From: Patellaria atrata CBS 101060
Lineage: Eukaryota
DNA: 64,000 nucleotides
Assembly: GCA_010093705.1 (NCBI GenBank)
Contig: MU006094.1
Coordinates: 1,401,550-1,465,549 of the forward strand
Direction of reading: 5' to 3'
In this document: one piece after another, positions 3,087 through 42,500 of the stretch
Layout: each line of letters starts with the position of its first letter
Numbering within the stretch: the stretch's first letter is position 1
Translations under genes and position numbers: made by a program
The notes under the pieces: model-generated
The model's input: only the letters and a program-made list of their open reading frames with translations
The model's database searches: none
What the model was told of the DNA's origin: nothing

Positions 3087-3548
3087 TTAAGATCCGGGTG
3101 GGCATAGATATGATGGCATCTTCAATCCTGGGTTTCGGCGTGACTCGGGTGGGAAGAACCAGTCATCAATATTCTGAGGATCTGTTCCATTTGATTGTGG
3201 GGCAGAAGTGCTCGAAGGGGGTTGCAGATGGTCTGGCATTTTCACCTTTGCATCTCGGCGAGATTCAGGAGGGAAGAACCAATCATCAATACTCTGAGGA
3301 GTAGACCCGTTAGCTTGTGGAGCCTCATAAGAGGTCCCAGAAGGTGGTTGAAGATGGTCGGGCATTTTAGCATTAGGATCGCGGCGTGATTCTGGGGGGA
3401 AGAACCAATCATCTATGCTTTGCGGAGTAAGGGGTCCTTTCTCTCCCGGTGCTGTAGTGTTTGAAGGAGGCTGTAGATGATCGGGCATTTTAGCATCAGG
3501 ATCTCGACGTGATGCTGGAGGGAAAAACCAGTCATCGATGGACTGTGG
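3087..3548 (-). repeat. Four tandem coding repeats (40-42 aa period, 29-aa conserved core PQSIDDWFFPPESRRDxxxKMPDHLQPPS) at the DOX-CYP C-terminus
   Basis: Visible in the translation of ORF 3087-4148. The amino-acid core is conserved while synonymous positions differ between copies. Confidence 0.95.
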
Positions 3549-6500
3549 TTTTGGTGCAGTTGGCTGAGATGTTCCGGCCGCGGGTGGCGTCGAACCTAAG
3601 GATGGTTGAACAGCTGCCCCAGACGCTGGAGGCTGCCCTGTCGTTCCAGATGGCTGAGCGCTAGTCGAGGATGTTGTCCCTAAATGACCTGTTGCAGGTC
3701 TAGAAGAGGTTCCAGATGCAGGGCCCGTAGTTGTCGAAGGTGCTGTACCCGAAGATGGCGCCGTAGTAGACGCTGGGGTAATACCTGACGGTGTCGTCCC
3801 AGAGGCTACAGTTCCCGATGGTGTGCTTTCTGAGGGAGCTGTACCGGAGGGAGCTGTACCAGACGATGGAGCAGTGCCTTGTCCGGAGGAGGTCCCCGCG
3901 CCAGCTTGGGTTGGAATGAGAGGTGTACCCAAAGGCGCACCAGAACCAGGAGCTTTCAAACCAGTCTTAAAGGCTGGGTCTTCTGTCTGCTTCGAGCCAG
4001 CAATGGTTACACTCTTGGGCCCTTCATTGTCCTGGTTCTTGAGAGAGTTGTAGACTGCAGTGAGGTCATGACCTGCTGCAGTAGACTGTCCATTAAGATG
4101 AGCAACTCCTTTACCAATGCCATCGTAGTGTAATTTCCATGCTAGCAATTGTCAATACAGGATATGATTTCCAGAAGTTGAACTCACTTGTAGGGTCAAA
4201 AGTTAACCAGGACCAGCTATCATCCAAATAGCAACGCTCAGTGCCGACTTGAATACTCTTCAGTTCTCCCATTTGTCCTGGAGCAGGTCTGACATTTTTC
4301 AAACTTGCAACGACTTCTAGGAGACCCACACAATATGTGATCGAGATTTCTTTGCCAAGACATTCATGAGGACCATAACCAAAATGAATGTACGCGTCAG
4401 AAGACCTTCCAGGTGTAAACTTATCCGGTTCTGGCACAGCTGCGGGATCTAAACCTGCGGGTCCCTTTCAAATGTTAGAGTATGCTAGCGTTGATGACCG
4501 TTGGTTCTACTAACCAACAAACAGATAACTGCATCACCAGGTTTAAATTTCTGTCCATCGATCTCTACAGGGGCAGCGCAGACCCGTAAGTTACGTTGTC
4601 GACTAGTTAGACGTTGCGCTTCGAGTACATATTCACGAACGATCTTATCGGTAGTTGGGCCTCCAGAAGCAACAACATCCTGAATCTTTTCCCAATGATC
4701 GGAATTTTCTGGTAACAGGAAAAACTGTAGTATTTCGGAGAACTAACCATTTTATTAGTAGATAAGAACCGAATCGGGACAAGACAACATACCAAGCCAA
4801 CTGGAACGCCAACTCCTGCGAGGGCTGTAAGCCATACGATGTCTGCAGCTTCGTTGACAGTTTTTCCGTAAGAAAAAAGCTCCTTGACGACCTGCTGTCC
4901 GTACCATCTCAAAGAACCTGTAGTGACCTGAGAGACTGCAGTAGTTTTCCAGGGTAACTTGAGTATCTGAGGACTGACAACATCGGAAACCAGTTTCTGG
5001 GTAGTTTCAGTAAGGACAGCAGCACCTTCCTGAGCCCAAAGTCGACGCCGAAAGGCCATACCAGGGTCATTGTTGTTGAATCCCCAGACACGAACATTAA
5101 GTAGGTGCTTATACAGTTCCGGAATAGACAAAGTTCCATTTGGATGTTCTGGACCTTTGAGATCTAGACAGAACAAGTCTCCTAGAACCTGTGTATTGAC
5201 TGGGATAGCAATGCTTCGAATTATTAGCTGTATTTCTTCAGTAACTGATAAGCGTGGAGACTTACTCCTTTAATATATTAATTTGATTCAAATCACGGGC
5301 CATCTCGAACGTATTGACTTTGAGAAGAGAAGCAGCGGTATTCCTGACGAAGTTCAAAAGTAATTGTGGGAAGTCACTAGGTCCATAGAGAATACCCTTC
5401 AATAGTGCTCGTTGAGCCGAGTTCTTAGGAGCATCCCCACCGAGCATAAAATCAGAGTAGTCTTTCTTACCAGGGAAAAGATCGTTGAGAGCCGGAAGCC
5501 AAGGAACACGAAAGGACGTCTGATCCTTTAAGACCTTAGTGATGATGGCATGCTTTGTCAAGACTATTGGTTTTGGTGGTGGTTTTGGCCCTGCAAGAGT
5601 GTATTGATTGATAGTACCAATCTCTTCGGCTATTTGCTTGTTCATCTTCCACGTGAACATTGGTTGCATAATGTGCAAGCTATTATACGGATACCATCCT
5701 GGCACAGCCCGTTGGAAGAGCTTGTAAAACATAGAGCCTCCGAGTCTGCATTGCATCAGTCATAAATTTTAGTGGTAGTGTAGTGAAAGTCGTACACTTT
5801 GTAATCTTGTTGCACTTCTTGCATTCCCCAATTAGTCAATGTTGCCGGGGTATAGTCCTTCCTACGATTAGTTTCGACACCGTAATGCAGCTATGTACTT
5901 ACAATTGTGTAGAATCGATCAGACCGAACCAAGGTGATGGCATCGGAGAACACGGCGCGTCCTACAGTATACGGTGGACAACCGCCACAACCGGGATCCA
6001 TTCGAGGCTTTGCATCTTCAAGGAATAGACCAGGGTATAATTCTACCATGTCGGGAGAGTCGTAGAGATGGCGTAAAAGATTAGCAATTTCTGGATCTGA
6101 ATTAATGTCTTCCATTCGCTGATGACGGGTCAGTCCAAAAAAGTCACGGAATTCGTTGAGAGATGCCATGCGCCTAGAGTAATGTTATAGTAGTATCATA
6201 TGCACAGGAATGGATCGAGTAATACCATTTACGAGATTGCAAAATACCGAGTATTTCTACTACCTTAAGCGCTTTAGGTACCATCCTAGCACCGAATAAG
6301 CCTAGAATAATAGGTCAGTTATGATTGGAATCAATAGAAGTATGAGACGTACCAGCGGGGTCTTCCATTGCTGCAGTCATAACATTAACCAGGTCTTCGT
6401 CTTTAAATCGGCCGTCCGACCCACGTTGCAAACCAGCAAATTCGCGCTTGCTAGGATCTGGGTCAATATTTTGCTCGTATCTTAGCAAACCTTGTAGAAG

Positions 6501-8807
6501 TTCCTGAGGGGTTAGTTCACTAAGCTTCTTGTTGATGCCTGGAAACAGGCTGAGAAGGAACTCTTCGAGCCACTTCTCGTCGCGCAAAGAGATTGTGGAG
6601 TGGAAGCGATACAGCAGATTGAACTCTGCAGATACTTGATTACCGATGCCTCGTGGTACTTCGTCCCCATTGAGTTTCTTGATCTCGACACGAGGATCAA
6701 TTGTCCAAGAGCTTGCCGAATGATGCGTATTGGTTAGACCACGAAGGTAGTCATGCAAAGAAATATTGCAGTAAAGACCGTTGACAATCCTACGAATACA
6801 TATTAGTGAATGAACCAGTGCAGGCGAGTCCCTTCTAATTCACTTACAATCTTGCGGTTTGGAACAAATCGTTGTCTTGTTTAGCAATAGCAGCCTTCTT
6901 TTCTTCTTCATTCCTTGTGGGTGGAAGAGTGAAGCGGCCACCTTCATTGATCTTGAGCAGCATTTCTGCGACATAATTGTGGAATCGACTATACATGACA
7001 AGAACAACATTAATACCAGGGGGTTGAGCTAGCAAGCGTTTCTCGTGGAAAGTATCCGGTTTCAGCATACCACGTTCCATAGTCCGAATTTCTAGTTGAT
7101 CCTTGAGGCTCGAGCCATAGAGCGGGGCAAGATCTAAATACGATGAGGTGTCCGAAATATCAGGATTGAGACGGTTAGTCCTAAAAATATCTGATCTTGT
7201 TAACATACAGGTTGGATTGATAGGTCCGTTATTCTACATACCATGGATAATGATAGTCGCGTGGTAGAAGAGGACAGTGGATATACCTGCTGGATTCTCC
7301 TTGAACTTGCCCTCAGGCCTCGCCATGAGCACTAAAAAGCCATCAGGAACCACACCTGTATGCACAGATTTACTTGAACTCACTGTCGAATAAGAGGGCT
7401 GGATCAGGGCGAACACCATGGAGCTTCCCTACTCTCCTCGCGGTTCTTGCGTATGGTGTGCCGGCTTTTCCCAGATCAGGGTATAGGACATTCTAGGAGC
7501 GTCTTAGTCTGATATTTTAAGCGCTACACAAATCATGACCTACATTATAACTACCGTCTGGAGTCCGATATTGGAATTTGTCTCCTTGATAGCTTAAAGG
7601 CGGATGTTGGAGACTATTCCATAACCCCTCGATCATGATGTTAGTGAGTTGCTTTCGGGCTTTGCTGTTTGGGGGAAGGGACCCGGCAATCGCCACTATC
7701 TTTTCCATCTACGTATTGTTAGCAAGAAACGCACAAAGTGCCCAACATACTTACGGCCAAATCCTTGTCATTTATAGGCTTGCCTTTGGAAAAAGCGAAC
7801 TCTAACAGAGTTTTGATATCACCGCGAGCTACCTTTAATCCGACAGCTTTCAAATCTTGCACTACAGTTGAAGGTGTAGTATCTACACTTCCGTATGCGG
7901 CATCGACATCAAACTTGTCTCCACTAGACGGTTTAGGCTTTGTAGCCTGACCAATGCCTAACCATCCAAGCCCAGCGAGAATGAAAGACGGGAGCTTTGG
8001 GAGACCCGGAAGACTCGGAAATGGGATCTTTTTGAAGAGGGCAAAAATCCAACTGAATGGATTCCATGACAAGGACGAAATAGGCTTTATACCCGGGATC
8101 GAAATATGTGGGCTTGAAAGTGACCCCGGTAATTTGGGTGTTGAGATGCCCGAAGATGATAGATGTGGAGTTGACAAGTGCGGAATGGATAAGTGTGGAG
8201 CGGACCAATGGGGGGTGGAGAGGGAGAAATGCGGTGCTTTCAACTTAGGAACTGTGAATCCGTAGCCATTCGCGCTCACTTTCGGCCTTGTCAAGCCCGG
8301 GGAAGTAACGCTAAATCCAGGTAACCTCTTGCCCCCGAAGCCCAGCAACTTGTACAGCAGGTAAGCGATCGCAGCAAGCCCAAACACAACTTTTGCCTCC
8401 CTGTTAGATACAATTGTGGGGAGATACTTTGCGATAAGAGCGAATCTGCTTTCCCAGTGATCGATTGACTGTTTCAAGTTCAAAATCCATCCTTTCGTAG
8501 TAAGAAGATGATCACGCCATGTCAAAGTAGGCGCCGAAGAGCCGCTGAACAATGATCGAACCTTCGATTTCTTTAGCGTAGAGTTCGTCGGAGCTGTTGA
8601 TAGACCAAGTTTGGCGGTGATAAGGGGTTCAATGATGAGAGAGGTAATGGCGATCAAGTATTTCAGGGTTTTAGAGAATGGATGGACGGCATCAACCTTG
8701 ACCTCAGCAGTACCATTCAGAGGTAATGTTGTACTGTTAAGGGGTGCTGCTGTGCCATTCAAGTGGGCCGCTGAACCATTCTCAGATGGGGATATTGAGA
8801 TAGCCAT
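3087..8807 (-). CDS. Fatty-acid dioxygenase (heme peroxidase)-cytochrome P450 fusion, Ppo/LDS/DOX-AOS family; about 13 introns, roughly 1,650-1,700 aa with long N- and C-terminal extensions
   Basis: Spliced exons give LQHPPLSY..YRTPDGSYNN, HATIIIHDIFRT (distal His), SSYLDLAPLYG, HDYLR, EFNLLYRFHS (catalytic Tyr, proximal His), ASLNEFR and VELYPG. The P450 part has EAQRL (ExxR) and HFGYGPHECLG (heme Cys). The last intron 4142-4187 joins FDPT|TWKLHYDG to the 3087-4141 exon. Confidence 0.93.
8094..8240 (-). repeat. Low-complexity (S/T/I/A)PH(L/F/W/I)S pentapeptide repeats in the DOX-CYP N-terminal extension
   Basis: KAPHFSLSTPHWSAPHLSIPHLSTPHLSSSGISTPKLPGSLSSPHISIP in exon 1. Confidence 0.7.
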
Positions 8808-10652
8808 AGAAGGCGGAGTGCATTCGAGTGAACACACCTGCAAGATGAGCGAAAGATAATGAAGGAGAAGAAAGGAGAACGAGTTCAGAGGAGGAACATC
8901 TGAAGACTGAAATGCTGATGAGTTAAGAACAGCTTCATACCAGCTATGAATATAAAAGGAAAGCTTAAAAATTCAATCTGGGTCCAATCACCACCTCAAG
9001 TCACGGTAGATATGCTTCTGTGCCCCATCCGGGCAAGATAGATATTGCGATGATGGCCCACTATCATCGTCTACGGACTGATCTCCATCTTTTCCCTAGA
9101 TCACGACATATCAAAAACTAATCGAGCCGAGCCGACGACGCGTTCAGCTGTTCCTTAGAAAGCCACAGTATAGCTACGAGATCGAGATATTCTCCAGAGG
9201 AGGATCATCATTGACTCGGGCTAATTTGGATAGACATGGGGATGCAGATTGGCGTAAAGGTGCGAGAAGCAAAGCAGAGACGCATCGCAGTTGCAGATTG
9301 TGAGTGAGAAGGATGGTGTAGGTACCGTAGTGGATACTATACCTTACATGAAGGCGTTGCCGAACAGTTCTAGCTTGTCTGGTGACGTGGAAGGGTGGAG
9401 AAGAGGGACATGAGAACATGATATCCATGAGGTGATGTGAGGAAGTAATGTGAGTGAGGAAGATGAGGTGGAATGGAAAATTTCCTCTACCCCCTCAGTC
9501 CAGAGTCTGGTCGAGCCTTGGACAGATTAGGAAGGGTGGTAAGGATGACCCCCGTGTAAACAGGCGAAAAAGGCCGAAGAGGCGATCTTGCCGTGCTTGG
9601 ACCCCTTGGGACCCAGACGAGAAGGGAAGCGGCGGCCGGAGGAACGCCAGACCAGCTGAAACGGTGAGCCTAAATTGACTTACACCTATCAAACCTTTTT
9701 CAAACTTTTGTAGATACAGTATTGCCTAGTTTTACGGGACAGCATCAATTGATCATGAATCAATCTCATCTTCCATGTCTCTCGCTCTGAATTTCTCTCT
9801 TATTTCTGCATTGTCGATCCTCATCCGCGGCGTTCCCTACCGATAATCGTTACAATTTGGACGGACATGGCGCGAATGGGGGGATCTTATGAGCAGCCAC
9901 GAAAGCACACGGGCATCATATCGACCTCTCAGAGTTGATCTTCTGTTCCTTGTCGTCAATCAGGGCCAGTTGGACTAATCGAGCGTTGCTGGTTCGTCAC
10001 TTCCTCATCGAGCTCGTTAGCCCTTTCCGTATCCATCTTTTCTTCAAGCCCACTCTCTGTATTAGTTCTCTCTCATCCTGTCCTCCGATTTTTCGTCTGA
10101 GCCAGTGACTTGCGACGGAATTTTCTTCCATGTTCATCCCTTCTGTCAAATTGCCATGCGTTCCGTTTGGAGATCGGATACCATTTGTTCTCTTGAGTCA
10201 TTCCTAGTACAGTACGCTGCATGTTCCTTTCGGTCCGTTCTGCCGTTCGGTAGTAGTGCTGCGGTACTGAGAACTACCAGCACTGTTTCACTGCCCTCCA
10301 GTTTTTGGAGTAATGGCCTGCAAGATGCTGCAGCCTGTGAGGGGATAGATTGGCGCTTTGCTGAGTTGTCAGGCTTTTTCGGCCTTTTCAGCTATCGTCT
10401 GCTGCAATATCCTGCAGGCGATAGCTGGGTTGTCGCAGCCCTTGCTGAAGTTGTTGAAATGGATACATGTATGCAGACGGCTTGACTTGTGCTTTGGGTC
10501 TTGTGTGATGCAACTCTGAGTATCAATCGATGACGCCCTCCCTCTCGAAATTTGTTGTCGAGCAGCAGAGATCTTTTCGAATAACGTGGAAATTCACACG
10601 AACTTCGAACCAACGATACTTTGGATAGTTGATTGTTTTAGTTATCTCTACA

Positions 10653-12214
10653 ATGGCAGCGGCTCAAGCCTCGCACACCGATACTCAGAGACGTCTCGTT
10701 CTCTGTTTTGACGGTACCGGCAATACCTTTAAGGGGGATGCTTCTGATACCAATGTTGTCAAGATATTTCAGATGTTGGACCGTAAGAATGCGGAGCAGT
10801 TTCATTACTACCAACGTGAGTTTACATTTTTCAACATTGCGCCCTTTGGAGTTTAAAGTTAGGTGGTATACCTATTAACTCGTTTCTTCAGCCGGAATTG
10901 GTACCTACATCGAAGGGAAGGTAGCTACGTCGCAAACCTTACTTAGAAAAATCATCACGAAGATTAGCACTTCCATTGACGAAGCGATTGGAACAACCTT
11001 CGCCGATCATGTCACCGCCGGGTACAGATTTCTCATGCGATACTATGCCGAGGGAGACTCCATCTACATCTTTGGATTCTCACGTGGTGCTTATACAGCC
11101 CGCTTTTTGGCGGAAATGATACACTCCATCGGTCTGCTTTCGCGGGGAAATGAGGAGATGGTTCAACTTGCATGGAAAACGTTCAGCAAGTTCCAACAAA
11201 CTCGAGGTCATACCCCTTTGACCAAGGCGGACCTTGAGCGCCGTGATTATATGGTCAAATTTAAGCAAACTTTCTGCCGTCTCAAGGTCAACATTCATTT
11301 TCTCGGACTCTTTGACTGTGTCAATAGCGTTGGTCAATTCGAGATCCCTCTATTCCGCAAATCTTATGAGGTCATCGCGAAACCTCCGGCAACACATATC
11401 AGACATGCTGTATCCATTCACGAGCGACGTTTGAAGTTCAAACCTGCATTATTCCTCTATGATAATGCCTCACCTCAAAGGGATATCGTCGAGGCGTGGT
11501 TCACCGGGAATCACGGTGATGTCGGTGGTGGATGGAATTATGAAAAAGGGGAAGAACATTTGCTCTCTGATACACCACTTGTCTGGATGGTCAATGAAGT
11601 CCTGCATTTACCAGGCGACAAGGCCAAATTGGCATTCAAGACCACTTCGGTAGAAAAACGAGCTCAAGAAGAAATAAAGTTTCAAAAGGACCTGAAGGCA
11701 ACTTTGACCGCTTCCGTACCCCGGAAACATAACTTTCGCATGCACGATATGCTTAGTTTTGGGATGGGAGTATCATGGTTTGCAACTTTAATGTGGTGGA
11801 TTCTTGGTGAGTTTGTCTACGGTAATGTTCATGGTATCATTTCTAATCCAACTAGAACTTCTCCCCTTCTTTGCGCGCCTCGAGCTTGAAAACGGTAAAT
11901 GGATACCCAGACATTTCCCTCCCAATCTAGGTGCTCCAAGAGATATACCGAAGGGCGCAAATATCCACAAAAGTGTCTACGAGTTACATCAAGCCGGTTA
12001 TCTCACAGACGAGCAATTACCAAAAATGGGAGGCAATAACCCACACATCAATCCTACCGGGGCGCTTTTCGCTTGGACTCAGAAGCGTAGTGCCGCACAG
12101 CAAGCCGCACAGAAAAGTTTGGAGCTTACAAAACCGTTAGCTAATGGAGCTCTAGCGAATGGATTTGCCCATGCGGCAATTCCAAGAGGAGACGTCAAAG
12201 GTCTTACGGGATGA
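10653..12214 (+). CDS. DUF2235 / Tle1-like alpha/beta-hydrolase (putative phospholipase); introns 10816-10891 and 11807-11855
   Basis: Motifs RRLVLCFDGTGN, DTNVVK, YYQ|PGIGTY, FGFSRGAYTAR (GxSxG nucleophile), FLGLFDCVNSV, RHAVSIHERR and EAWFTGNHGDVGGG. Splicing restores the reading frame. Confidence 0.9.
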
Positions 12215-15152: not shown

Positions 15153-16021
15153 TGGGTCGGCTCAGACTTTGTTGTGAGGGTTGAGGCCATGAAAGAGGGG
15201 TTTGTTGATTTACAAATACGGTGGTGAGGAAGATGATCTAACTGATGGTTTAGATATATATACGAAAAGGTATTCAAACAATGCGAGAGAGTTGATTTTC
15301 GCAATAGCACAGTGGTTACCACATGTCAGTCAAGTTACGACCTTCGTTGAGCCAGTAGATGGCCTCAATTGAGCAGCCTGTATTAGTCCTAGAATTGAGC
15401 TAATAGAGTGGAGAGGCTTGTCATCGACGATGACTGGACCCGCAGGTACTGAGAGCATCCATGGCATTGAAGTACGGCCACCGCCTGACCACCATGGGGG
15501 GTGAACTTTCGAATTCGAATGAGAGACGTGAGTGGTGAAGAACAAGGACCATGTAGTCCCATATCATGTAATCAGATTCCTTGGATAACACCAATTAGAA
15601 ACGTAGCTAGTCCATAATCTTCTATAGTGGAGAAGCGTTGTCAACTGGCCTTCGGTTAAGGTTACGGCTCCCTTCCAATACCCAAAATAACAACATTAGT
15701 CAGATCAAGTATAGAATTTACTCTAGGGATAGTTTTCGACGCCACGACCTAAAGTAAATCTTCCCTTGAATACTGTTTTGTAATGGTTATCAATGAGAAG
15801 TGAGGTCGAAGTTGGAGTACCATAGTTCTAAAACTCTCGGCCCGTGTTGCGGAGCTGGGAGAAAAGAAGCTCCGTCGATCTTCATTTCTACCTCACAGTA
15901 TCAAATACGTCCGTAAACCATCATCATATGGGTGGATAGGTGCAGAGCGGGCTTCAAATCATCTGAGAGCATAAAGAATTATCAAAACTGATCCAAAGCT
16001 ACAACACCCCTCATCATCAAC

Positions 16022-16987
16022 ATGGAAAGGATCATTATCACTGGGGCAGGCGGCTTTGTCGGCCAACGTCTAGCCTTAGGTTTACACTCGCGTTACCCCG
16101 ATGCGACTCTCGTCCTTGCCGACATCTCTTCCCCAAAGGATCCTTCTCAAGGAAGCTCGGATCAAGTACAATGTGTAGCTTCCGATCTTACAGACCCCTC
16201 GACTTGTACTTCTCTGATTGAGCCCGTACCGGATGCTGTTTACATCCTCCACGGCATTATGTCCAGTGGCTCTGAAGCTAATCTAGAACTCGGTCTGAAA
16301 GTCAATTTCGATAGCGTACGAACACTTTTGGACAAACTTCGTGTGAAGAGTCCAAGAGTGAAAGTCATCTTTTCGTCTTCTTGCGCCGTCTTTGGCAGAG
16401 CAGCGGTCCAGAGAATTGCAACAGAAGCAGATGTCGTTCCGATGCCCGAAAGTTCTTACGGGACTCAGAAACTAATGATTGAACTTCTCATCAACGACTA
16501 CTCAAGACGAGGCCTTATAGATGGTCGTGTAGTGCGTCTCCCCACTATCTTCGTAAGAGCGGGAGCACCTACCGCAGCGGCGTCTTCTTTCGTCTCGGGA
16601 ATCGTACGGGAACCAATGAATGGAGAAAAGAGTATCTTACCCGTGGACCCGAATATTGGTATATGGCTTTGTTCTCCAAGGACTCTTGTCAAGAATTTGA
16701 TACATGCCTTGGAGATTCCCAGAGAGAAGTTCGGCCACTTTCGAACAGTGTTGTTACCCGGTTATACAGCCACAAGTGCAGAGATTCTCGCTTCATTGGA
16801 AGCGATAGCGGGCAAGAAGACCAGAAATCTTGTCGAAGAGAAAAGAGATGAAAGCATACAGCGAATTGTGCTGAGCTGGCCTGCCAAATACGATACTTCT
16901 CGAGCCGCCAAACTTGGATTTTTCGAAGATATTGGATTGGAGCAAACAATCAAAGACTTCGTCAGAGAAAACACCGGGCAAAAATGA
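16022..16987 (+). CDS. Extended SDR, NAD-dependent epimerase/dehydrogenase (D-erythronate dehydrogenase DenD-like), intronless, 321 aa
   Basis: TGAGGFVG Rossmann motif, HGIMSSGSEANLELG, SSSCAVFG, YGTQK (YxxxK) and RLPTIFVRAGAPTAAASSFVSGIVREP. Confidence 0.85.
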   Translation: MERIIITGAGGFVGQRLALGLHSRYPDATLVLADISSPKDPSQGSSDQVQCVASDLTDPSTCTSLIEPVPDAVYILHGIMSSGSEANLELGLKVNFDSVRTLLDKLRVKSPRVKVIFSSSCAVFGRAAVQRIATEADVVPMPESSYGTQKLMIELLINDYSRRGLIDGRVVRLPTIFVRAGAPTAAASSFVSGIVREPMNGEKSILPVDPNIGIWLCSPRTLVKNLIHALEIPREKFGHFRTVLLPGYTATSAEILASLEAIAGKKTRNLVEEKRDESIQRIVLSWPAKYDTSRAAKLGFFEDIGLEQTIKDFVRENTGQK

Positions 16988-19512: not shown

Positions 19513-19756
19513 ATAATAGGCGATCTGACACTGTAAAGCATAAATTGATAGAAGGGTCAAGTAGTTAGCTTCGATCAGGTAGATTTTAAATTCGCTCTGC
19601 AGAAAAATCATTATCTTGAAATTGCGTCCAAGCTTGTTCTTTCACGTGTTTGTCGCGTGGTGACGCATCCTCCCCTTCCGCGTCGCCAAAAAGAAAAAAA
19701 GTTTGCAACCTTCCAACTCAACCCCAAAATTCCCCAAATCAACCAACGCCTTCACA

Positions 19757-22495
19757 ATGCTCCCAAATCCTCCATCGGGTTCTCAAAAACGGAAATTACC
19801 AGTATCATTTCAACAAAAACCTGATAGGAAAACCTTAAGGCGCATAGATATTCAAAATGCACGCAGGATCGAAACCCAGCCGAGCGCCGGCGCCCTCAAA
19901 TCTGGTTCCCTCGATCTGGGCGCCTTCATTAAGGCCCGCGAGTTCGAGATTCGAGCGCTGGAGGAGGGAATGAAGGTGAACAAGCATCTACTGAGGACGA
20001 GGGCCTTCCAGGATTTACCAAGGGAGTTAAGGAGGAGGACGGCGAGCCATAACAAGGATAGGGTGCCGAAAAGATTAAGGGCGCGAGTCGCGAAAGAGGT
20101 TAGTTGTTTTTACATTCATGGATCTTAGGGAATGTGATCGATTTTGAGGGTCATATTGATGAGTAGCGTATAGATGGCTGAAGATAATACCCCCACAGTT
20201 ACGGCGAGAAGACGGAAACCGAGTGGGCATATGCGACTGAGATTGGAGACGGCGAAGAGACTTGAGGACCTAGGAAAAAGAAAGGAGAAGAAGAAGAAGG
20301 ATAATAAGGAGGGAGATGATCCCATGGAGGGAGTTACCGTCACCAGAAAGAAGGATCAACTAAAACAGGAAGACGCAGAATATATAAAGGCGCGGGTGCC
20401 TAGGGCAAAGAAGAACAAGTTACAATCACCCCCTGTACCCCCGGCAAAGTTTAGAAAACGTCAATTACATAAGGCCTGGTTACCGACCCATATGTTCCAC
20501 GCGAAGAGAGCCCATATGACGCCGCCAAGTGCATCATTGTGGAGATTCTCCATTCCACTCACCCCCACTCAGAAGTCGTACAGGATAACGCATAGAGCCA
20601 GCGTTACGAGGGGTTCTGTCGCCTGGGATATGAGTTATATGGCTACTATCGGACTGGAGGGGCCTGAAATAAGCATGATCAACGTTTTTCGCTGGTTGGG
20701 TGTGGGCGCTGATGTTCCGGACGACCTCTGGGGCCCTCGCGGACATAAATGGCGACGTGGTGTACGTTCATGGAGTGGGTGGTTGTACGAAAGAGGTGGC
20801 TGGCCTGCAAATGGTATTGCCCCTGCGACAGTGATGTGGTGCGTACAAGATCAAGCAGAATCGGATGTAGAGATGAAAGAACCTAGTTCAATGAAAAACA
20901 GTACAGAAAAGAAACGAAAGGCGTTAATTAGGGTTCATCCATCTGCATTTCTGCAAGTCTGGGAACAATTATTGCACTTATGCGCAAGGCCAAAACCTCC
21001 CGTAACCGTGGAAGACTTGAGGTTCGAAATTGGAAGTATTGAGATCACAGGACCAAATTCCACAGAAGCTCTGCTGGGCATATTACATCCATGTGCCCCT
21101 CTTGGGGAGCAATCCCATATATCGAACAGCCCAGAGGATATCTGGTCTGAATTACTTCCAGGACCCACTGCTGCTACTCTCCCTTCAAATGTTCTACTCG
21201 GGTTCAGTATCGCCGATCCCCGTCTCCGGCACCCTCCACGTACTATTCCAATCTCGAATGTCGGGTCTAATAGCGCACTGCTTAATATACTCACCACCTG
21301 GCCTATTGACAACACCCAAAGACCCCAATTGCTCTTCGACCGTAAACTTCGCTATCTTTCAACCCGTTCATACTCCTCCCAGAAATCTATCAACCGCCGA
21401 TACGCCGCATGCCCGCCAGGGCAACAATACCCCACGCCTCTCCCTCATGATCCAGCTATCCCCATTCTCTTGCTTACTACACGTCCCTCCGGTTCCGCTG
21501 GAGGCTCGGGAACCTGGACTCTTATGCTGCCTTGGAAGTTTGTTCTTCCCATCTGGCAAGCATTAATGTACTATCCTAACTCCTGCGGTGGGAATCCACG
21601 GTTTGGAGGTCTGGAGGAGACGAGACAACTTGCATTCGAGGCGGGCGTACCGTGGTTTCCGGGGGATTATCCGATGACGAAAGCAGGAAGGGAATGGAGG
21701 ACGAGGGAAGAGGAGAACAGGAAGAAGGAATGGGAGAAAAGACCCAAGAGTAAGAGGGTCGCATACGAGAGCGTTGATTTAGGTGAGGGACGGAAGGGCG
21801 AGATTGGGATGGGATGGGGTTGTGATTGGGAACGGTTATTACGTGGGTTGGAGCATCCTGTTAAGAATAGTACAGAGGAAGGAGAGCCGGCGCAAAGGAA
21901 ACAACAACCTCATCATTTACCGTCTGCTCTCGCGCAACAATATCTCGACGATCCCTCATCTATTGCCGATCACTCGACCCTCTCTGATGCGCTAGTAACC
22001 GTCAAACTTAGCCTCCTAACTCGCGGCGCACCCAAATCAAACGCTCGGATCTACCGTCTCCCGACCGATGACTCTTCCCTTCGTGCTCGATGGCTCGCTC
22101 TGTTACCATCCAATCGTGAAAAATCTTCCTTAAGACCCCCGAAAAATGCAATGAACCGCAACCACCTTAATCCTAACCCTAAGAAGCAACATCTCTACCA
22201 TCGCGCTATCGCGTCCTCGATCCTAGACGGTCCGCCCAAACCAGGAGCGAAGGAGTACCCGCACGTCCCGGGAGAAGTGGATCTGATCGGTTTCGTCACA
22301 ACCGGGAACTTCAACCTGGGTGAGGGCCGGGGAAGTGGGATCGGGTGTATAGTTCTGGGAAGGGTTGCGGGAGTGCGGCAGGGGGAAGTTGGCAAGGGCG
22401 AGAAGGGAATAGGGAAGAGAGAGGAGAGCCGGATCTGTATTGTTAGGGATAGTGGTGAGAGTGTTGGGAGGCTGGCGAAGTGGGATATCGTATGA
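19757..22495 (+). CDS. POP1: RNase P/MRP protein subunit Pop1; intron 20099-20173
   Basis: FIKAREFEIRALE, RAFQDLPRELRRRTASHN, FRKRQLHKAWLPTHMFHAKRAHM, WDMSY, PWFPGDYP and LIGFVTTGNFNLGEGRG. Confidence 0.95.
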
Positions 22496-23001: not shown

Positions 23002-24550
23002 CTATTTGATACTCACCCGGAATACCAGCATTTGATTTAGTAAGTTAAACCCGCTTGAATCCGCAAACGCATCTCTCCCAAAATTTTGATACCCTTCTTG
23101 CGTGATGAAGTCATTATCACTGCTGGCAAAGAGCCAGTACTCTCCCCTATGACCCTCGACCGGTACCAGTGCCAATCCTTCCCATTTCTCATTCAGTAGT
23201 CCCAGTGCATCGTTATCCGTTCCACCATTCAAGAGGCCGAACTTCGCGAGCTCACTGCTTATATTGATGTCGAGGAAACTGCACGTCTCTGCGGCTGTGA
23301 TGTCGGGTTTGAGCACACCAGCAGGAGAAACGGAACCGTTGTGGCCATCGTATGCACCCAGGATGTTTGTAGCAGACGCCAACGAGAAAACATCGATGTG
23401 CCTATATACGCTCTCTGTCTCGTCCTGCCCGCGACCGAAACCGGAGTCGCGCGCCAGAAGCAAGAATCTCCCATCCCCGAGAGCGAGGATTTCGCTTTGA
23501 GCGGCGGTGCGGGGGTTCTTGGTTTCGGTGGGGTCGTTGAAAACGGGAAGACGGACGACGTACTCTCCTACCAATCTGGGTGCGCGACCGTGGCGGTGCG
23601 AAAGGTCGTATTTCAGCAGACGCGCATGTCGTCTCGTGGTCCCGGCGGTGCCTCCATCTTGAATAGTTGCACTTTGAAGCAAGGTGTAAAGAGCTTTCTT
23701 CTCCGGATCATAGGAGAGACCTTCGAAGCCTTGATTGTTGCTACGACCGGAGGTTGGGATTTCTGGTACGGGGACTTGATCGGGATTATAGACAGGAGGG
23801 TTGTTAGAGGCGAAGGATTGCGTACCATTGCGGAGAGGGATGAAGGCTGGAGTTGGACGGATGGCGATATTCATTCGGCCTTTGGACGTAAAGTGGTAGA
23901 TATAGGGTCCGTATTCGTCAGATATCCAGAAGCCGCCACGGGAGTCGAGGACAAGGCCTTCGGGATCTATGGAGACGCGGGTGCCGCCTGGACCATTACC
24001 TCCAAACCCATTACCGGTGAATGTTGCCGCCGGGATGTCTGGGTAGCCTCGGAATTTGAGTACTGTTGTTGGGTCAAGGCCTGAAATTGGAGTCCCCGAG
24101 GGATCTGAGAAGAGAATTGTATCTTCATACTCAAAAGCTAGGTTGGGTGGTGATGGAGACTGAGTTGTAGGAGAGAAGGTTATAGAGAAGATGTGAATCC
24201 GAGGTTGATAAGCTGTTGTCCCTTCCGTATTCCTATCCATGGGCTGTAAACAAAGCGGGATGAATGTTTAAGAACAAGACGACATACCAACCGCGATCTG
24301 GTAGCGCATACAAAGTACCCTTGTACTTCCCACCTCGTATTTTCTTCCAGCTACCTTTTTTGATGGCAATACTGCTCCCCATCGACAGGGTATCCCCATA
24401 TTTATCGGTGAAGTTTGCAGCGACAATGCCGTAACCGGCAAGCTCTTTGTAAGTGAAGGTCTTGCCTGCGCAGCTTGCCTTACTCACATATGTCGAAGCA
24501 GTGGCAATTGGAGCAACAATGATGACTGATAGTAATCGAAGAAAATGCAT
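23002..24550 (-). CDS. Secreted phytase-like / esterase-like beta-propeller protein; one intron at about 24233-24287
   Basis: Signal peptide MHFLRLLSVIIVAPIATAS, LPDRGW|NTEG, DPEGL, FWISDEYGPYIY, NNQGFEGL, AAQSE, EKWEGL and SDNDF. Confidence 0.85.
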
Positions 24551-29947: not shown

Positions 29948-32900
29948 ATGGCCTACGATCAGAGATCTGCTTACCAACCGCCTCCGCGGCCTTATTATCA
30001 AGAACGACAGAACATGCAGTCGCAAGGCTTCGACATGCGACAACGCCAACAACAACAACAAGAATACTACGATAATAGCGGATATGATAGCTATGGGTAT
30101 GAGGATTATAATGATTATCAAGGCGGAAATGATAACCATAATCAATACGGTGAAGAATACGGTAAAGGAAACTCAGGCCAGCAAGACATACGCCCACAGT
30201 TTGACGATCGAGGCCCGCAAGGAGACGTTCGGGGTCAGTATCGTCCACCTCCGCAACAGCAACAGCGATATTGTGGTCAACGGACAGGCCCAGGACCGCC
30301 AAATCAATATCCTAACGGACAAACTCGGCAGTATGGCGGAGCAGACCGCAATTATCAAGAACCCAGTCAACCCGTAAGCCCATTGGGTAATTACTCATCT
30401 CCATCGTCAAGCCAACCACAGGTTGGAGGAAGACCATCGCAGCAACATGGCCCGGGAAGGGGCCCCCCATCTAGAGGTAGGATGCATGTAAACAAATGAA
30501 TTCTGGATTTCCTTGCGTACTAATAATATCTCAGATCGGCGACCTGCGGTTTCCCCCATATCTCCCGAGGTGCAAAACTTCGACAGCCCTTTCCCCGTCT
30601 TTCCGTCGCAGAAACAAAACCCACACAAGGAGCAATATGCGATCGATGATGGGATGGCCGGGTTAAACCTCGAGGATTATAGAATACCAGATGAAGCACC
30701 GCGCCCAGGCACTGCTGGTCGTACTCGGGCAACCCCCCAACGTCAGCCCATGTATAATGATCAGATTCCAAGATCTCGATCTGCACAAGGCAATCGACCC
30801 TCGAGGGAAGGATCTTTTGGTCATGGCAATGGATATCAGGATGGCCAAGGAGGATACCAGAGACCTCCGCCACAGCAGCAGTGGAGGGAACCGCCCCGTC
30901 CATCGCAGCGACAAATGCGTGGCGGATATCAGAATATGCCGGGCGGCAATCGACCACGGCCTGGGCCGCCATCTCCTTCGCATGCCGCATTTGGTCCAAA
31001 CAGTCAGCGATCTATGACCATGCCACATAGCCGACCTCACGGGCAAGGTTTCCGTCCAGAGCCTCCTGCACAATGGACGGAACCTGGTCCTGCAGCGGGT
31101 TATCATGGACCGGAGTCACCTTCGTACATTCCCCCTCGTCCATCTACCTCTTCGAGCAATCGGCATCAAGGGCTAACGAACCAGAACAGAGGATACAATG
31201 ACGGGCTACCGGAATCTCAGTCTTCACATCCACCGAGAGCTTACGACCAAAATAACGCCCGACGAGGGTCATTGGACGACGTTTACGACACGTACTATGA
31301 TAATCAAGCTCCTGTTGCCCAACAACGCCAAATCTTTCCTCCGGTTACTAGAGAGGTCCAGATTGAGGCTGAGATGCCTAACTTCGAGCTGCAAGCATCG
31401 TCCCGTCCAATGCATCAAAAGCAAGATGCTGTCCCCGTGGCTCAACTTGGGTCTGGCGACAGCTATAACGACTATCACGGTCAGACTCAGAATTCGGAGC
31501 CTAATCAGAAGGAATTCGTCTTTGAGATGCCAGGAGACATGCCGGCTATACTCCCTGTTCAACGGATGAACCCGGGACATATGGAGAGAAACAACGATCC
31601 GTACAGTCATGGGGATGGCAGGAAAACAGCACCTCCTGTAGCTCAAGAGCAAGGTTATTCTCCGCATCCAAATCAACAATTCTACAAACCAGGCTATCCC
31701 CAAATGCACCGTAACGCGTCAGGTCACAGCCAACGGTCAGACCCCGGTCCTCGTCCTCAGGGTGACGGCCGAATGGGACTGCAACAAGAAATGGTGCAAC
31801 GAACACCTTCCGCTAATCAAGGCCAGGGATTACAACAAGGAACAATGCAACGAAACCTTTCCACTAACCAAGGCCAGGGCCTTCCCCATAATGGTCGCCC
31901 TGGTCTCCCTCAAGCTAGACGCTCAAATCCCGATGCTCTTCCTCAACACCCTACCCCTGTTCGTCCCGGATTAATGGAAAGTAATTCTGGCGGGAACTCT
32001 AGACCACCACCTGTGCGTCAGTACGCCACTGATCCCCCACTGTCTAGGCAAGCGACAATGCAATCAAGCGCTCCTGCAAATAGCAAACCTAGCGCTGAGA
32101 GACGGGTATCGGGTCCCGTAACGCAACAGGAACTCGACAACCTCCGCCCTCTTGTCAAATCGGGCTCAGCGGACAACAAGACCCAACTCAAGTACGCCAA
32201 GAAGCTCATCGAGGCCGCCGACGTTCTCACCCGGACCATGGAACAGCGCAGCGCGGCAAAAGCAAGAGAGAGATTCATTCTCGACGCTCATAAAGTGATT
32301 AAGAAGCTCGTTAGCAATGGGTATCCGGATGCTATGTTCTACCTCGCCGACTGCTATGGCCAAGGTCTTCTGGGACTGGCGGTCGACAATAAAGAGGCTT
32401 TCAAGCTCTATCAATCGGCGGCGAAAGGGGGACATGCCCAAGGCGCTTATAGAACGGCCGTGTGTTGCGAGATGGGCTCTGAGGAGGGGGGTGGCACTCA
32501 TAAAGACCCATTGAAGGCGGTGCAGTGGTATAAGCGTGCTGCGGCATTGGGGGATGTCTCGGCCATGTACAAGATGGGCATGATTCTGCTGAAGGGTTTG
32601 CTTGGCCAGCAACGTAACTTGGGGGATGCACTTACGTGGCTTAAACGTGCCGCGGAACGAGCGGACGAGGATAACCCGCACGCTCTCCATGAATTAGGAA
32701 CACTTTACGAGTCACCGGTCCAGAATGACAAGATCATCAGAGATGAAGCCTACGCGTTTTCCCTATTCAAGCAGGCAGCTGACTTGGGCTATAAACACTC
32801 ACAATTCCGCGTTGCTGAAGCGTATGAGCACGGCCTCTTCGGTTGCCCCGTTGACGCCCGTGCTAGCATTGCCTGGTACAGCAAAGCGGCTGCACAAGAG

Positions 32901-33351
32901 GAGCATAATAGCGGGCTTGCACTCTCGGGATGGTATCTGACGGGCGCTCAAGGCATACTTGAGCAGAGCGATACCGAAGCATATCTATGGGCACGGAAGG
33001 CGGCATGTGCGAATCCACCGTTGGCGAAGGCTATGTTCGCGATGGGATACTTTACGGAAACCGGGATCGGGTGTCCGAGGAGTCTGGAGGAGGCGAAAAG
33101 ATGGTACGGAAGGGCAGCTGGTAAGTTTCGAAACCTTCCTTCCTTGGCGCCATTTTACCCACTTTCTTTTTCTCGGCGCTCAGAGTAGAAGGGAGAATAG
33201 CTAGCTGACGGTCTCTTTAGCATACGATTTCCCGAAAGCGAAAGAGAGACTCGAAGAACTGAAGCGCGGAGGCGCAAAAGCACAGAAGAGCAGAGAGAGA
33301 CTGAGCAGAACTAATCAGAAGCAAAATGAAGAGAATTGTGTTATTATGTAA
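29948..33351 (+). CDS. CHS4: Chitin synthase activator with Sel1-like repeats (Chs4/Skt5 family); introns 30477-30534 and 33121-33220
   Basis: Long Q/P/R-rich N-terminus, then GYPDAMFYLADCYGQG, YRTAVCCEMG, AMYKMGMILLKGLLG, PHALHELG and LALSGWYLTG. The final exon ends in the CaaX box CVIM*. Confidence 0.9.
31776..31877 (+). repeat. 51-bp (17-aa) tandem duplication in the Chs4 disordered region
   Basis: GLQQEMVQRTPSANQGQ / GLQQGTMQRNLSTNQGQ. Confidence 0.7.
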
Positions 33352-35965: not shown

Positions 35966-38265
35966 TTAAAAGCCTGAATCAGCGCCTTGTGTAAGATTGA
36001 ATGCCTTCCAATTATCACATGTAGGGTTCATAGTCTCCGGATCGATTAGACCTAGACTTTCTATTTCGTCCGGTCGCTCGATGAATTGCTGCAGCATATT
36101 AGCACCCTATGACTTCGCCGGGTTCCCGTAAATAGGGACTTACCACTCCAAAAGATTCGAAAGTATGATATCCGATATGGCAATGCATGAGCCTAGAGTA
36201 GTAATTAGTCCTCTATTCTGACAATCGAAATAAATTGGAGAGACATACCAAATTCCAGGATTGTCCGTCTTGAACCCGATAACAAGATAACCGTTTTGAC
36301 TAGGTGTGCCGGCGGGAAGTGTTGCTACATCTCGACGAGGAGGATTGTCCAAATTATTCAGGACATTCGTTCGCACTGTATTTTCGTCGTATTCTACACC
36401 AGAGTCGAGTATGGCAAAATCATGCCCTGCTCCCTTGTTAGCAACAGATCACTAATTTACTCAGGGCGATGAATACCATGTAAATGAATTGGATGAGAAG
36501 TTATGAGACCCCTGACGAAGTAATAAACCCATTTATCTGCTCGGGGCAGCAGGAAAGCAGCTTCTGTGGACTCATTCACAAATGAATAATTTCCCTCATA
36601 TGCGTGCTGAATACTTGGATAGGACCAATTCGTGATCATGTACGTCTCCCCTAAGTTCCAACGCCCTATTCCATTAATCTGACTCGCATTAAATCCCACT
36701 TGATGGATTGGCTCATTGTCGAAGTTAGGTGGATCTACTGACACCTTTACAATGGGTTTGAGGTTGCTGATCGCTTCGTCGAGACAAGCGGGTGAGGGGA
36801 GAGGACCTAACGGACCGGGTTCAGTTGCGTTATCACTAGAATACTTTAATATCGCGCGGATGTTGTCCTTGCTTTGATCGGTAAATGCAACGCATGATTG
36901 GGGAATCGCTCGAATCCAGTAGTTTGCAACCGGTTGATCTGCTTTCACAAGGATATCGTATCTTTGGCCTAACAAAATAATGTTAAAACGCTGGAGTGGA
37001 ACGAGGGATGTTGTTAGGAGTCGGGAGATACGGACCCATCGTAATACTCAGAGACCTCGTGGTGTAAGGTTCAATAGGCACGAAATCTGTATCAAGGTTT
37101 AACTGGCGGAAGGTTTGAAAGCCGCAGCATTATCCTCATACCTGCAGCAATGACAGTCATCTCATGACCTTCAATGGTGAAGTTAAACTGAGCCTCAATT
37201 GCACTATTAACCAATCGTAGTAAATGCGTCTTTCCCGGCTCAAATACAATCTCGGCCCGTTTTCCCACAACCGTGCCGTTCGGGAATTGATAGGTATTGT
37301 TACCGTTGATGAGGCCATTCTCCTGGGGAGGGGCTGCGTTGAAGGCTGTATTCATGATCCTCTTTAATTGTAACTCTGTAGAATTTTGAATCCCTAAAAT
37401 AGGTCAGTATCTGAACGTCATTCGAGGGTTAATGTCTTACAGTCATTGATAAAAACGTGACCTAAGTCGATATCATAGTTCTCACTTGCTGGACCGTGAA
37501 TCAAAATAGGACCTAAGGGAGGAGAAGTTCATTAATGGAGTCATATGGGTGACTCTAAGTGCAGTTGTCATACCGAATGCACCATCCCATGCTTGCAATG
37601 AATAGTGACTATGGTACCTTCGAAGCTGTTAGAAGAGAACAACACGTAGCAAAGGCGTTTTGTTAGCTTACCATGAAGTACCATACTGTGTCGCTTTCCA
37701 CTCATACGTAATAGTGTCCCCAGGCTTTTCACGTTAATAAAGGGGGAAGTTAGTGATCTAGAAAAGAACGCTTTGCTTACAGCAACTGGACATTGAGTAA
37801 GGGAAACAACACCGTCGCTCTGAAATGTATTCTTCTGTTGAATTCCATGAAAGTGAATGCTAGTACCAGTGCGATTTGTACACGCATTTGTTAGATGAAC
37901 CCCTATTCGAAATCAATATCAACCCATGACCGCATGAGGCAACATGTTCATGAATATGTAGGAGATCACTTACTAACTGTATCACCCCAGTTGGCTTCAA
38001 TAGTAGGCCCAGGAAGACTACCATTAAAAACTTGAACGTGTCTTGGTCGACCATCAGGCTCCAAAATCATATCCTCAAGCCGAAGCCAATACTCCTTCAA
38101 CGCGCCTTCTGGAGTGGTCTCATAGTAGTTAGTAGTGATATCATGATCACACCATTTCTCTCGAGTGGCGTTCGTATTGCCCTGGCAGGGTGTTCTCTTT
38201 GAAAGCGTGGAAGATGGAAATGCAATGACACTCGAAGCAAGCAGAAGCAAAAGCAGAAATATCAT
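35966..38265 (-). CDS. Secreted laccase-like multicopper oxidase (AA1), multi-exon
   Basis: Signal peptide. Copper motifs after splicing: IHFHG, WYHSHYSLQAWDG, HPIHLHGHDF and HCHIGYH. Also NPPRRDVA, DNPGIW and C-terminal DSGF*. Confidence 0.92.
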
Positions 38266-42361: not shown

Positions 42362-42500
42362 GTGAATTGCTTGTATGATTAGTGTGTATGATGTGGAATT
42401 GGACTTTGATTGCAATCAAAATTGAGATTTGGTAGACCGGGAGAAATGGTGCGGAGGCTTTTGTTCACTTATAGGTTTACGACGTCACATCTCCCATAAG

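Follow-up and report, generated by a model that had tools for sequence, protein, structure and literature searches.

A Tle1-like serine hydrolase gene conserved as the neighbour of a PpoD-type fatty acid dioxygenase gene in Patellaria atrata and other filamentous ascomycetes

Oxylipins made by the Ppo or fatty acid dioxygenase-cytochrome P450 (DOX-CYP) enzymes control how moulds sporulate, sense their density and interact with hosts, and the enzymes need free fatty acids. Elsewhere, lipases are coupled to oxygenases, as in the mammalian pairing of cytosolic phospholipase A2 (PLA2) with cyclooxygenase and in plant jasmonate synthesis, where plastid lipases act with lipoxygenase (LOX) and allene oxide synthase (AOS). 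No lipase was named as a fatty acid supplier to the Ppo/DOX-CYP enzymes in the literature searched. Here we describe a candidate from a 64-kb window, the whole stretch of DNA analysed, from Patellaria atrata CBS 101060 (Dothideomycetes, Patellariales). In this window a DOX-CYP gene of the PpoD or 9R-dioxygenase-allene oxide synthase (9R-DOX-AOS) type (3087..8807, minus strand, 14 exons, 1688 aa) diverges from the gene of a DUF2235 or Tle1-like serine hydrolase (10653..12214, plus strand, 3 exons, 478 aa), both genes being intact. A previous sequence-only reading had placed the two start codons back to back, at 8807 on the minus and 10653 on the plus strand, across 1.85 kb, and the gene models agree, with 1845 bp (8808..10652) between them.

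Among described oxygenases, the Patellaria protein resembles Aspergillus niger PpoD (An12g01320) and Aspergillus terreus ATEG_02036, the second of which we take to be an allene oxide synthase. The three are alike in the YRFH motif, in the equivalents of Y394, L398, G616, R624 and F627 and in the P450 cysteine, and both Aspergillus genes have the same hydrolase neighbour. The Patellaria oxygenase is longer, at 1688 aa versus 1143–1252 aa, with an N-terminal extension about 200 aa longer, and is set apart by a 343-aa tail with four WFF repeats. The sordariomycete 9S-DOX-AOS type of Fusarium and Colletotrichum (about 1150 aa) falls in the same 9-DOX clade, carries YRFH and has 53% identity, but differs from the Patellaria protein in its Ile/Ile/Leu residue set, in starting at the core without an N-terminal extension and in its short tail of 35–38 aa. 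No orthologous hydrolase from Fusarium or Colletotrichum was present in two lists of the best 120 hydrolase matches.

The described relatives of the hydrolase are bacterial, namely the Tle1/TleB proteins (4o5p, 6sjl/6ski, 9j3f) and Legionella lpg2422 (4m0m), which share the family PF09994 and the GxSxG, Asp and H-DVGGG motifs. In contrast to Tle1/TleB, the Patellaria hydrolase is a fungal protein without a secretion system, VgrG partner or immunity gene, and it has a C-terminal module specific to the fungal form. A role as a type VI secretion effector was rejected, the gene being an intron-bearing fungal nuclear gene beside a DOX-CYP and unrelated eukaryotic genes; the hydrolase belongs to the Tle1 protein family but stands outside the effector system. 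The logic proposed here, in which an acyl hydrolase would free a polyunsaturated fatty acid at a membrane for a haem dioxygenase and a self-sufficient P450, parallels the PLA2-cyclooxygenase and jasmonate systems. Those systems, however, use lipases of other families, and their genes do not lie side by side, whereas the fungal link is a conserved divergent gene pair with a predicted biochemistry.

Both protein families were thus already known and the PpoD/9R-DOX-AOS type has been studied enzymatically, but the hydrolase neighbour was not found in the literature searched. No report of a DOX-CYP/DUF2235 pairing was found in a search of mostly open-access papers, so that an earlier mention is possible, and DUF2235 and oxylipin were not found together in any of these papers. 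The main texts searched contained none of An12g01310, An12g01320, ATEG_02035, ATEG_02036 and AFLA_002578. In a 2026 review (PMC13049297) the words phospholipase, lipase, gene cluster and extension do not occur. The passages on fungal DUF2235 proteins that were consulted are transcriptome mentions only, and the literature on DOX-CYP enzymes and phospholipases held nothing on this pairing, judged by titles and the beginnings of abstracts.

To compare named genomes, adjacency was read from consecutive locus tags or accessions, orientation being read only at the DNA level. The oxygenase list was obtained with exon 6 as query (282 matches among 560 candidates, best 120 used) and the hydrolase list likewise comprised the best 120. 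It was found that the tags were consecutive in 7/7 species with positional tags in both lists: Cadophora gregata (ONS95_003570/71), Trizodia (M1829_004616/17), Cadophora M221 (IFR05_002396/95), Myotisia (FQN57_003271/70), Penicillium odoratum (N7520_005849/50), Aspergillus hancockii (BBP40_003242/43) and Ascosphaera pollenicola (KEM56_001985/84). Cluster look-ups gave further consecutive pairs in Aspergillus flavus (AFCA_007561/62, AFLA_002577/78 and G4B84_006638/39), A. oryzae (BAE60971/72), A. terreus (ATEG_02035/36) and Phyllosticta capitalensis (KAK8197370/71), and consecutive tags or accessions too in A. niger, A. tubingensis, A. welwitschiae, A. costaricaensis and A. floccosus. Older annotations agree, with An12g01310 as the DUF2235 gene and An12g01320 as ppoD in A. 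niger (the latter from the PMC6784283 supplement), and, from papers on A. flavus, AFLA_021090 as a 'sporulation associated protein'/DUF2235 gene and AFLA_021100 as ppoD. At the level of tags, the pairing spans Eurotiomycetes, Leotiomycetes and Dothideomycetes.

Tagged hydrolases of Coniothyrium, Chlorociboria, several Penicillium species, A. tanneri, A. ochraceoroseus, Emydomyces, Polytolypa, Ophidiomyces and two Onygenales were without a counterpart among the best 120 oxygenases, as were tagged oxygenases of P. canescens and Diplodia intermedia among the best 120 hydrolases; none of these counts as a counter-example. Adjacency was also not counted for Camillea, Cadophora MPI, Bisporella, Neofusicoccum, Aplosporella, Bimuria, Lojkania and Pseudomassariella, where the two genes could be placed on the same contig only. 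The DOX-CYP of Pseudomassariella groups with the 9S outgroup.

For the DNA level, metagenome contigs were scanned with a hydrolase alignment, 80 loci were kept and the oxygenase was then run against them by tblastn. A DOX-CYP was present in 4/80 loci (L001, L008, L016 and L026), always on the opposite strand and directly upstream of the hydrolase gene, and with the window this gives a head-to-head orientation in 5/5 cases. Seven of the 79 loci that had a recognizable exon fell in a eukaryote-like clade of their tree; most of the other 72 showed contiguous matches of 30–42% identity, with 60–65% G+C in the four checked (L002, L006, L009 and L038), and look bacterial. Five eukaryote-like loci had at least 2 kb of upstream flank, and the pair was found in 4/5 of them. 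When all 378 open reading frames (ORFs) of the window with at least 60 aa were used as queries against these loci, matches occurred inside the two genes only. Since no other window ORF matches the loci, the pair has been kept while everything around it differs.

Restriction of the adjacency to this genome, which would have spoken against the sequence-only reading, is clearly contradicted, since the pair recurs across classes and contigs. A lone head-to-head pair would be statistically weightless, and the rest of the window is a housekeeping mix, which would fit a neighbourhood that arose by chance in Patellaria and means nothing more. However, because the pair recurs in other genomes it stands above chance, and with pairing in every named species testable by tags or accessions and on four contigs besides, we regard coincidence as refuted and exceedingly improbable.

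The association also reaches beyond PpoD. One of the metagenome pairs, L016, is a Penicillium-like 9R-type pair, but L001 and L026 pair the hydrolase with a DOX gene carrying YRWH, the mark of the 8- or 10-dioxygenase type. The hydrolases of L001 and L026 form a separate clade together with those of L003, L008 and L028, and the nearest Atlas clusters of the L001 hydrolase are ascomycete. A further DUF2235-like stretch, more distant at 26% identity, occupies 15912-16784 of L001, some 4 kb from the paired hydrolase on its downstream side.

To compare the histories of the two genes, trees were built for 21 species pairs and outgroups, using IQ-TREE for the hydrolase and both FastTree and IQ-TREE (LG+G4) for the oxygenase. 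The two genes share an evolutionary history that departs from the species tree. Both gene trees hold the groups (Myotisia,(A. tubingensis,A. terreus)) and (P. odoratum,Ascosphaera), and both join Botryosphaeriales with Eurotiomycetes and (Patellaria,Camillea) with Leotiomycetes. Monophyly of the Eurotiales was rejected in both data sets by the approximately unbiased test (p-AU 0.0004 and 0.0013), for a group picked after the trees were seen. The simplest reading of these sequence relationships is that both genes were duplicated, lost or transferred together. Camillea tinctor (Xylariales; P0004/P0121) groups with Dothideomycetes, its hydrolase having 79% identity to that of Coniothyrium and its oxygenase 75% to that of Patellaria, a pattern which points either to joint movement of the pair between classes or to contamination of the assembly.

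Taken further, in filamentous ascomycetes DOX-CYP and Tle1-like hydrolase could together form an oxylipin module of two genes, ancient and portable, a reading that we offer as speculative and rather unlikely. The module may exist in at least two versions, the 9R-DOX-AOS/PpoD type and the YRWH 8-/10-DOX type, and its two genes may have undergone duplication, or passed from lineage to lineage, as one, since the Camillea pair lies inside a Dothideomycete clade and the Eurotiales are polyphyletic in both trees. Under the same reading the hydrolase may, by analogy, be a dedicated fungal cytosolic PLA2 counterpart gating the substrate supply of the Ppo enzymes, and the N-terminal extension or the WFF tail repeats of the oxygenase may bring both enzymes to one membrane.

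The region between the start codons is presumed to be a bidirectional promoter common to both genes. No match was obtained with Rfam for 8808..10652, nor with Pfam for the intergenic ORF 10066-10482 and the intergenic parts of ORFs 7722-8972 and 8512-8856, the 106-aa ORF 9174-9494 lying outside the scan; repeats in the region were short, chance-level ones only. StuA-type WCGCGWNM sites were not enriched, with 38 in the window against 40 expected and one in the intergenic region.

One co-regulation datum comes from A. flavus. In the AfStuA mutant compared to wild type, both genes were lowered (PMC6090018 supplement), AFLA_021090 to 14.9 from 47.4 (log2 fold change -1.67, adjusted p 0.029) and AFLA_021100 to 4.9 from 26.2 (log2 fold change -2.41, adjusted p 0.012). 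In addition, raised expression of ppoD is reported for a wetA mutant and lowered expression for an A. niger hosA mutant, in short tables which do not include the hydrolase, and the supplements of PMC6325891, PMC5988903 and PMC7692752 held nothing on either gene. The table of PMC9785051, in its available part, does not list AFLA_021100. The joint response to StuA, together with the responses of ppoD to WetA and HosA, would also fit a pair kept only by a common bidirectional regulatory region, for example of development-regulated 'sporulation' genes, and otherwise biochemically unconnected; the hydrolase family also occurs in A. nidulans and, by name, in yeast with no DOX-CYP beside it, which points the same way. 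Promoter sharing alone, however, explains poorly why a separate hydrolase clade is paired with a YRWH DOX in L001 and L026, and why the pair stayed joined through apparent duplications or transfers while all flanking genes changed, and we therefore consider this explanation unlikely. From the conserved arrangement and the matching gene trees, the two genes are probably functionally linked.

The oxygenase gene model has its ATG at 8807, a stop at 3087-3089, 13 GT..AG introns of 45–58 nt and no internal stop. A search of sequencing runs listed none of RNA that covers the window; the two runs containing it are genomic contigs, with no splice joints. Its exons on the minus strand are 8807-7755, 7708-7544, 7492-7384, 7331-7242, 7190-6848, 6789-6353, 6301-6226, 6173-5903, 5857-5796, 5745-5266, 5213-4793, 4742-4515, 4464-4188 and 4141-3087. 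The core (aa ~290-1349) aligns with Camillea tinctor at 75% identity over 1055 aa with 7 gaps and with A. niger at 62% over about 1050 aa with 4 gaps; identities to Cadophora gregata, A. terreus ATEG_02036 and a Fusarium protein are 69, 62 and 53% respectively. The Patellaria oxygenase itself was absent among the best 120 of the 282 exon 6 matches, where the best was Camillea at 82%, and the public annotation may lack the gene or model it otherwise (e.g. split, or over a length limit).

The dioxygenase domain, animal haem peroxidase-like, occupies aa ~305-870 (5742..7895, minus), with PF03098 matches on two exons. Alignment with characterized enzymes places the distal His in IIIHD (7189-7254, spanning an intron), and the same strand holds the Tyr/Leu motif HDYLRGL (6735-6755), YRFH with the catalytic Tyr and proximal His (6600-6611) and the segment GCGGCPPYTVGRAVF (5948-5992). 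The protein is identical to the A. niger 9R-DOX (P0270) at Y394, L398, Y441, G616, R624 and F627, and a check of P0270 found the cited 9R residues at exactly those numbers. According to accessible sections of PMC13049297, 'YxF' marks 9-dioxygenases and 'YxW' the 8- and 10-dioxygenases, Leu398/Gly616/Phe627 distinguishes 9R from the Ile/Ile/Leu of 9S, and Arg624, placed where the substrate channel opens, is linked to binding of the free carboxylate. The subfamily is taken as PpoD because A. niger PpoD is described with Tyr441/Phe443/His444 in the portion of Wadman et al. 2009 available to us (PMC2666749). By its active-site residues the oxygenase is thus of the PpoD/9R-DOX-AOS type.

The P450 domain, allene oxide synthase-like, covers aa ~900-1345 (4119..5654, minus) by alignment with the characterized A. 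niger and A. terreus proteins. PF00067 was matched on one exon only weakly (E 0.001, 18.4 bits, under the 22.8 cut-off), but the haem-thiolate motif FGYGPHECLG (4354-4383, minus) aligns with the Cys motif of both proteins. The motif resembling substrate recognition site 4 (SRS4), GVGVPVG (4796-4816, minus), reads VPVG in Patellaria, APVG in A. niger, TPSG in A. terreus and VPVT in the Fusarium 9S type. Relative to the TPxG of 9R-AOS enzymes, in which a polar Thr stands above the haem, the Patellaria motif keeps the terminal Gly, which fits the 9R group, but has Val in place of Thr. Because SRS4 reads VPVG, the assignment of the P450 half as an allene oxide synthase is likely but not certain.

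Extra sequence flanks the core in all 9R-type orthologues examined, with 24–305 aa before it and 6–706 aa after. In Patellaria the N-terminal extension (aa 1-~300) is encoded by exon 1 (7755..8807, minus), an open frame with one Met only, and comprises a hydrophobic segment (8601-8666), a transmembrane-like helix AKVVFGLAAIAYLLYKLLGFGG at aa 138-159 (8331-8396), PHxS repeats (8091-8234) between this helix and the next motif, and an NPF..W..F motif at aa 244-260 (8028-8078), all on the minus strand. Most N-terminal extensions of the 9R type have such a transmembrane-like hydrophobic helix, after which come basic residues and a motif like 'LNPFxWKIF', as does L016 (8053-8724), and helix and motif have no counterpart in the 9S-type Fusarium and Colletotrichum proteins. 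Judged by charge distribution, the extension would be a P450-like membrane anchor holding the enzyme on the cytosolic side.

The hydrolase gene comprises exons 10653-10815, 10892-11806 and 11856-12214 on the plus strand, separated by GT..AG introns of 76 and 49 nt, and exon 2 is 100% identical to the annotated 478-aa protein of P. atrata CBS 101060 (P0001). The product matches Pfam PF09994, the Tle1-like catalytic domain formerly called DUF2235, with E 4e-72. The motifs and the hydrophobic patch named in the sequence-only reading were all found: GFSRG at aa 116-120 with Ser118 (11074-11088, plus), LFDCV at aa 194-198 with Asp196 (11308-11322, plus), GNHGDVGGG at aa 260-268 with His262 (11506-11532, plus) and WFATLMWWIL at aa 350-359. 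The absence of a signal peptide is borne out as well, the N-terminus MAAAQASHTDTQRR... having no hydrophobic signal sequence. Ser118, Asp196 and His262 are invariant in 20/20 aligned orthologues (50–71% identity).

From the orthologue alignment, a conserved fungal C-terminal module of about 85 aa extends over aa 339-423 (11743..12046, plus) and includes the hydrophobic helix WFATLMWWILELLPFFARLEL (11776-11887, plus, spanning intron 2). Invariant in 20/20 are H339, D340, E360, L362, P363, F365, R367-L370, W375, P381-N383, G385 and R388. An AlphaFold2 model (mean pLDDT 66.6) has a helix at 348-360 with modest confidence, and the hydrophobic helix would work at a membrane or lipid surface. The hydrolases of Diplodia (P0324 and P0343, 603–617 aa) have a helical tail faintly like apolipoprotein/phasin-type amphipathic repeats; an apolipoprotein-like tail was set aside, the Pfam scores being 27–36 bits against a cut-off of 90.

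Among solved structures, a PDB profile search returned TleB 9j3f (E 6e-10), to which the motifs of the triad align, Pseudomonas aeruginosa Tle1 4o5p (E 1.4e-8) and Escherichia coli Tle1 6sjl (E 2.9e-5). The top Foldseek matches were 4o5p, 6sjl, 4m0m (Legionella lpg2422) and 9j3f, with probability 1.0, TM-scores of 0.26–0.33 and 14–20% identity, and the weaker alpha/beta-hydrolase relatives in the fold search included thioesterases and carboxylesterases.

The explanation that fits best overall, held tentatively and a little short of probable, is an anciently conserved divergent two-gene unit in which the hydrolase supplies the oxygenase. Both genes would be driven from one promoter region, inherited jointly and used in one pathway. 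The oxygenase would sit on the membrane via its N-terminal anchor with the catalytic part in the cytosol, and the hydrolase, cytosolic and with a Ser-Asp-His triad and hydrophobic C-terminal module, would cleave acyl esters of phospholipid or neutral lipid at the same membrane to give free C18 fatty acid for the dioxygenase. The PpoD-type enzyme would then oxidize linoleic or oleic acid at C-9, as a 9R-dioxygenase, and hand the hydroperoxide to its AOS-like P450 half. We favour release of substrate because a free carboxylate is required by the dioxygenase, because phospholipases A are the closest relatives of the hydrolase among solved structures, and because both proteins carry hydrophobic elements particular to the paired forms. 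On this analogy the hydrolase is a possible, still tentative, substrate-releasing lipase for the oxygenase.

The hydrolase could instead act after the oxygenase in the same pathway, releasing or re-esterifying oxylipins, hydrolysing an esterified product or handling the allene oxide or ketol. The evidence for linkage serves this order of steps equally, since the data do not fix it, and thioesterases and carboxylesterases are among the weaker fold relatives. However, the closest solved relatives are all Tle1/TleB phospholipases, and the dioxygenase keeps the Arg equivalent to R624, so that free fatty acid must come from something; a downstream role is accordingly judged doubtful. Returning to substrate release, the lipase and oxygenase unit of the sequence-only reading has gained in its linkage and co-regulation part from the recurrence of the pair, its sole synteny, the matching trees and the StuA data, whereas PLA2-like release of linoleate is still inferred from the distant bacterial Tle1 family at 18–20% identity. 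That reading had overlooked the PpoD/9R-DOX-AOS type, the N- and C-terminal extensions and the unpaired occurrence of the hydrolase family.

Several observations weigh against a conserved supplier unit. Lipase activity is known only for the bacterial relatives, at 18–20% identity. Zopfia rhizophila is likely an exception to the pairing: its hydrolase is on another contig than its best DOX-CYP, and in the tree this DOX-CYP is not the matching orthologue and falls outside the partners of Patellaria and Camillea. The Eurotiomycetes hold several lineages of the hydrolase family, and AN1725 of A. nidulans belongs to a lineage sister to the paired one, making the family wider than the pairing. The A. 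nidulans ppo genes are presumably AN1967, AN6320 and AN5028, none of which neighbours AN1725. Only ppoA, ppoB and ppoC are given for this species in the accessible text of PMC2666749. Relatives of the hydrolase also occur in Orbiliomycetes, Pezizomycetes and Onygenales and, by source name only, as YEL023C in yeast. Given AN1725, the hydrolase can occur without a DOX-CYP neighbour. The fifth of the eukaryote-like metagenome loci with enough upstream flank, L022, a distant DUF2235 relative (34% identity, 62% G+C), carried no DOX-CYP in the 4.8 kb before it or the 6.3 kb after it.

The expression data contain points of the same kind. The AfRafA mutant lists the hydrolase only, as up (PMC6090018 supplement), and AFLA_021090 was nearly silent (<0.7) in 18 samples of another study, in the available part of its table (PMC9785051). 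In A. niger, deletion of ppoD changed neither oxylipins nor sporulation, according to the portion of PMC2666749 available to us. Because this deletion looked silent, phenotypes may be conditional.

The C-terminal tail of the oxygenase (aa 1346-1688, 343 aa; 3090..4118, minus) is continuous with the last exon and matched no Pfam family. It includes a Ser/Thr/Pro/Gly-rich stretch (3549-3956, minus) and four 27-aa repeats 'SIDDWFFPPESRRDP.AKMPDHLQPP' (3465-3545, 3342-3422, 3216-3296 and 3096-3176, minus), which represent an undescribed short motif. A library-wide search for the repeat returned only two related fragments, P0363 and P0364, the first of them the last exon of another DOX-CYP, together with one spurious bacterial match. 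The tail of the Cadophora gregata oxygenase (P0131) has two diverged copies, and that of A. flavus ends in 'NWFFLPHG...AKQVPGH'. H-type lectin domains (PF09458, up to three copies) were found in the oxygenase tails of Trizodia, Phyllosticta, Neofusicoccum and Diplodia (P0135, P0142, P0151 and P0153), and Patellaria has none. Complex prediction for the N-terminal extension (aa 130-351) with the hydrolase gave 'no support' and is not counted as evidence either way.

Other genes of the window encode an NAD-epimerase (15992-16984), POP1 (19664-22492), a phytase-like esterase (23005-24267, minus), a Sel1-repeat protein (30492-33185), a multicopper oxidase (36460-38301, minus), malate synthase (40668-42415, minus), PrpD (44834-46392), a ferric reductase (47457-49997), GH16 (56025-57524), DUF7928 (61086-62266) and GT2 (62919-63998). 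A secondary-metabolite cluster was rejected, since neighbours such as POP1, malate synthase, PrpD and ferric reductase form a housekeeping mix.

A hydrolase that has remained next to a single oxygenase subfamily in several fungal classes offers a concrete and cheaply testable candidate for the supplier of this oxygenase. Silent ppoD knockouts may be explained if activity depends on when the hydrolase releases substrate. If true, fungal DUF2235 proteins, so far without a function, would gain a first physiological context, and the hydrolase is a candidate for the missing step that feeds or processes fungal lipid signals.

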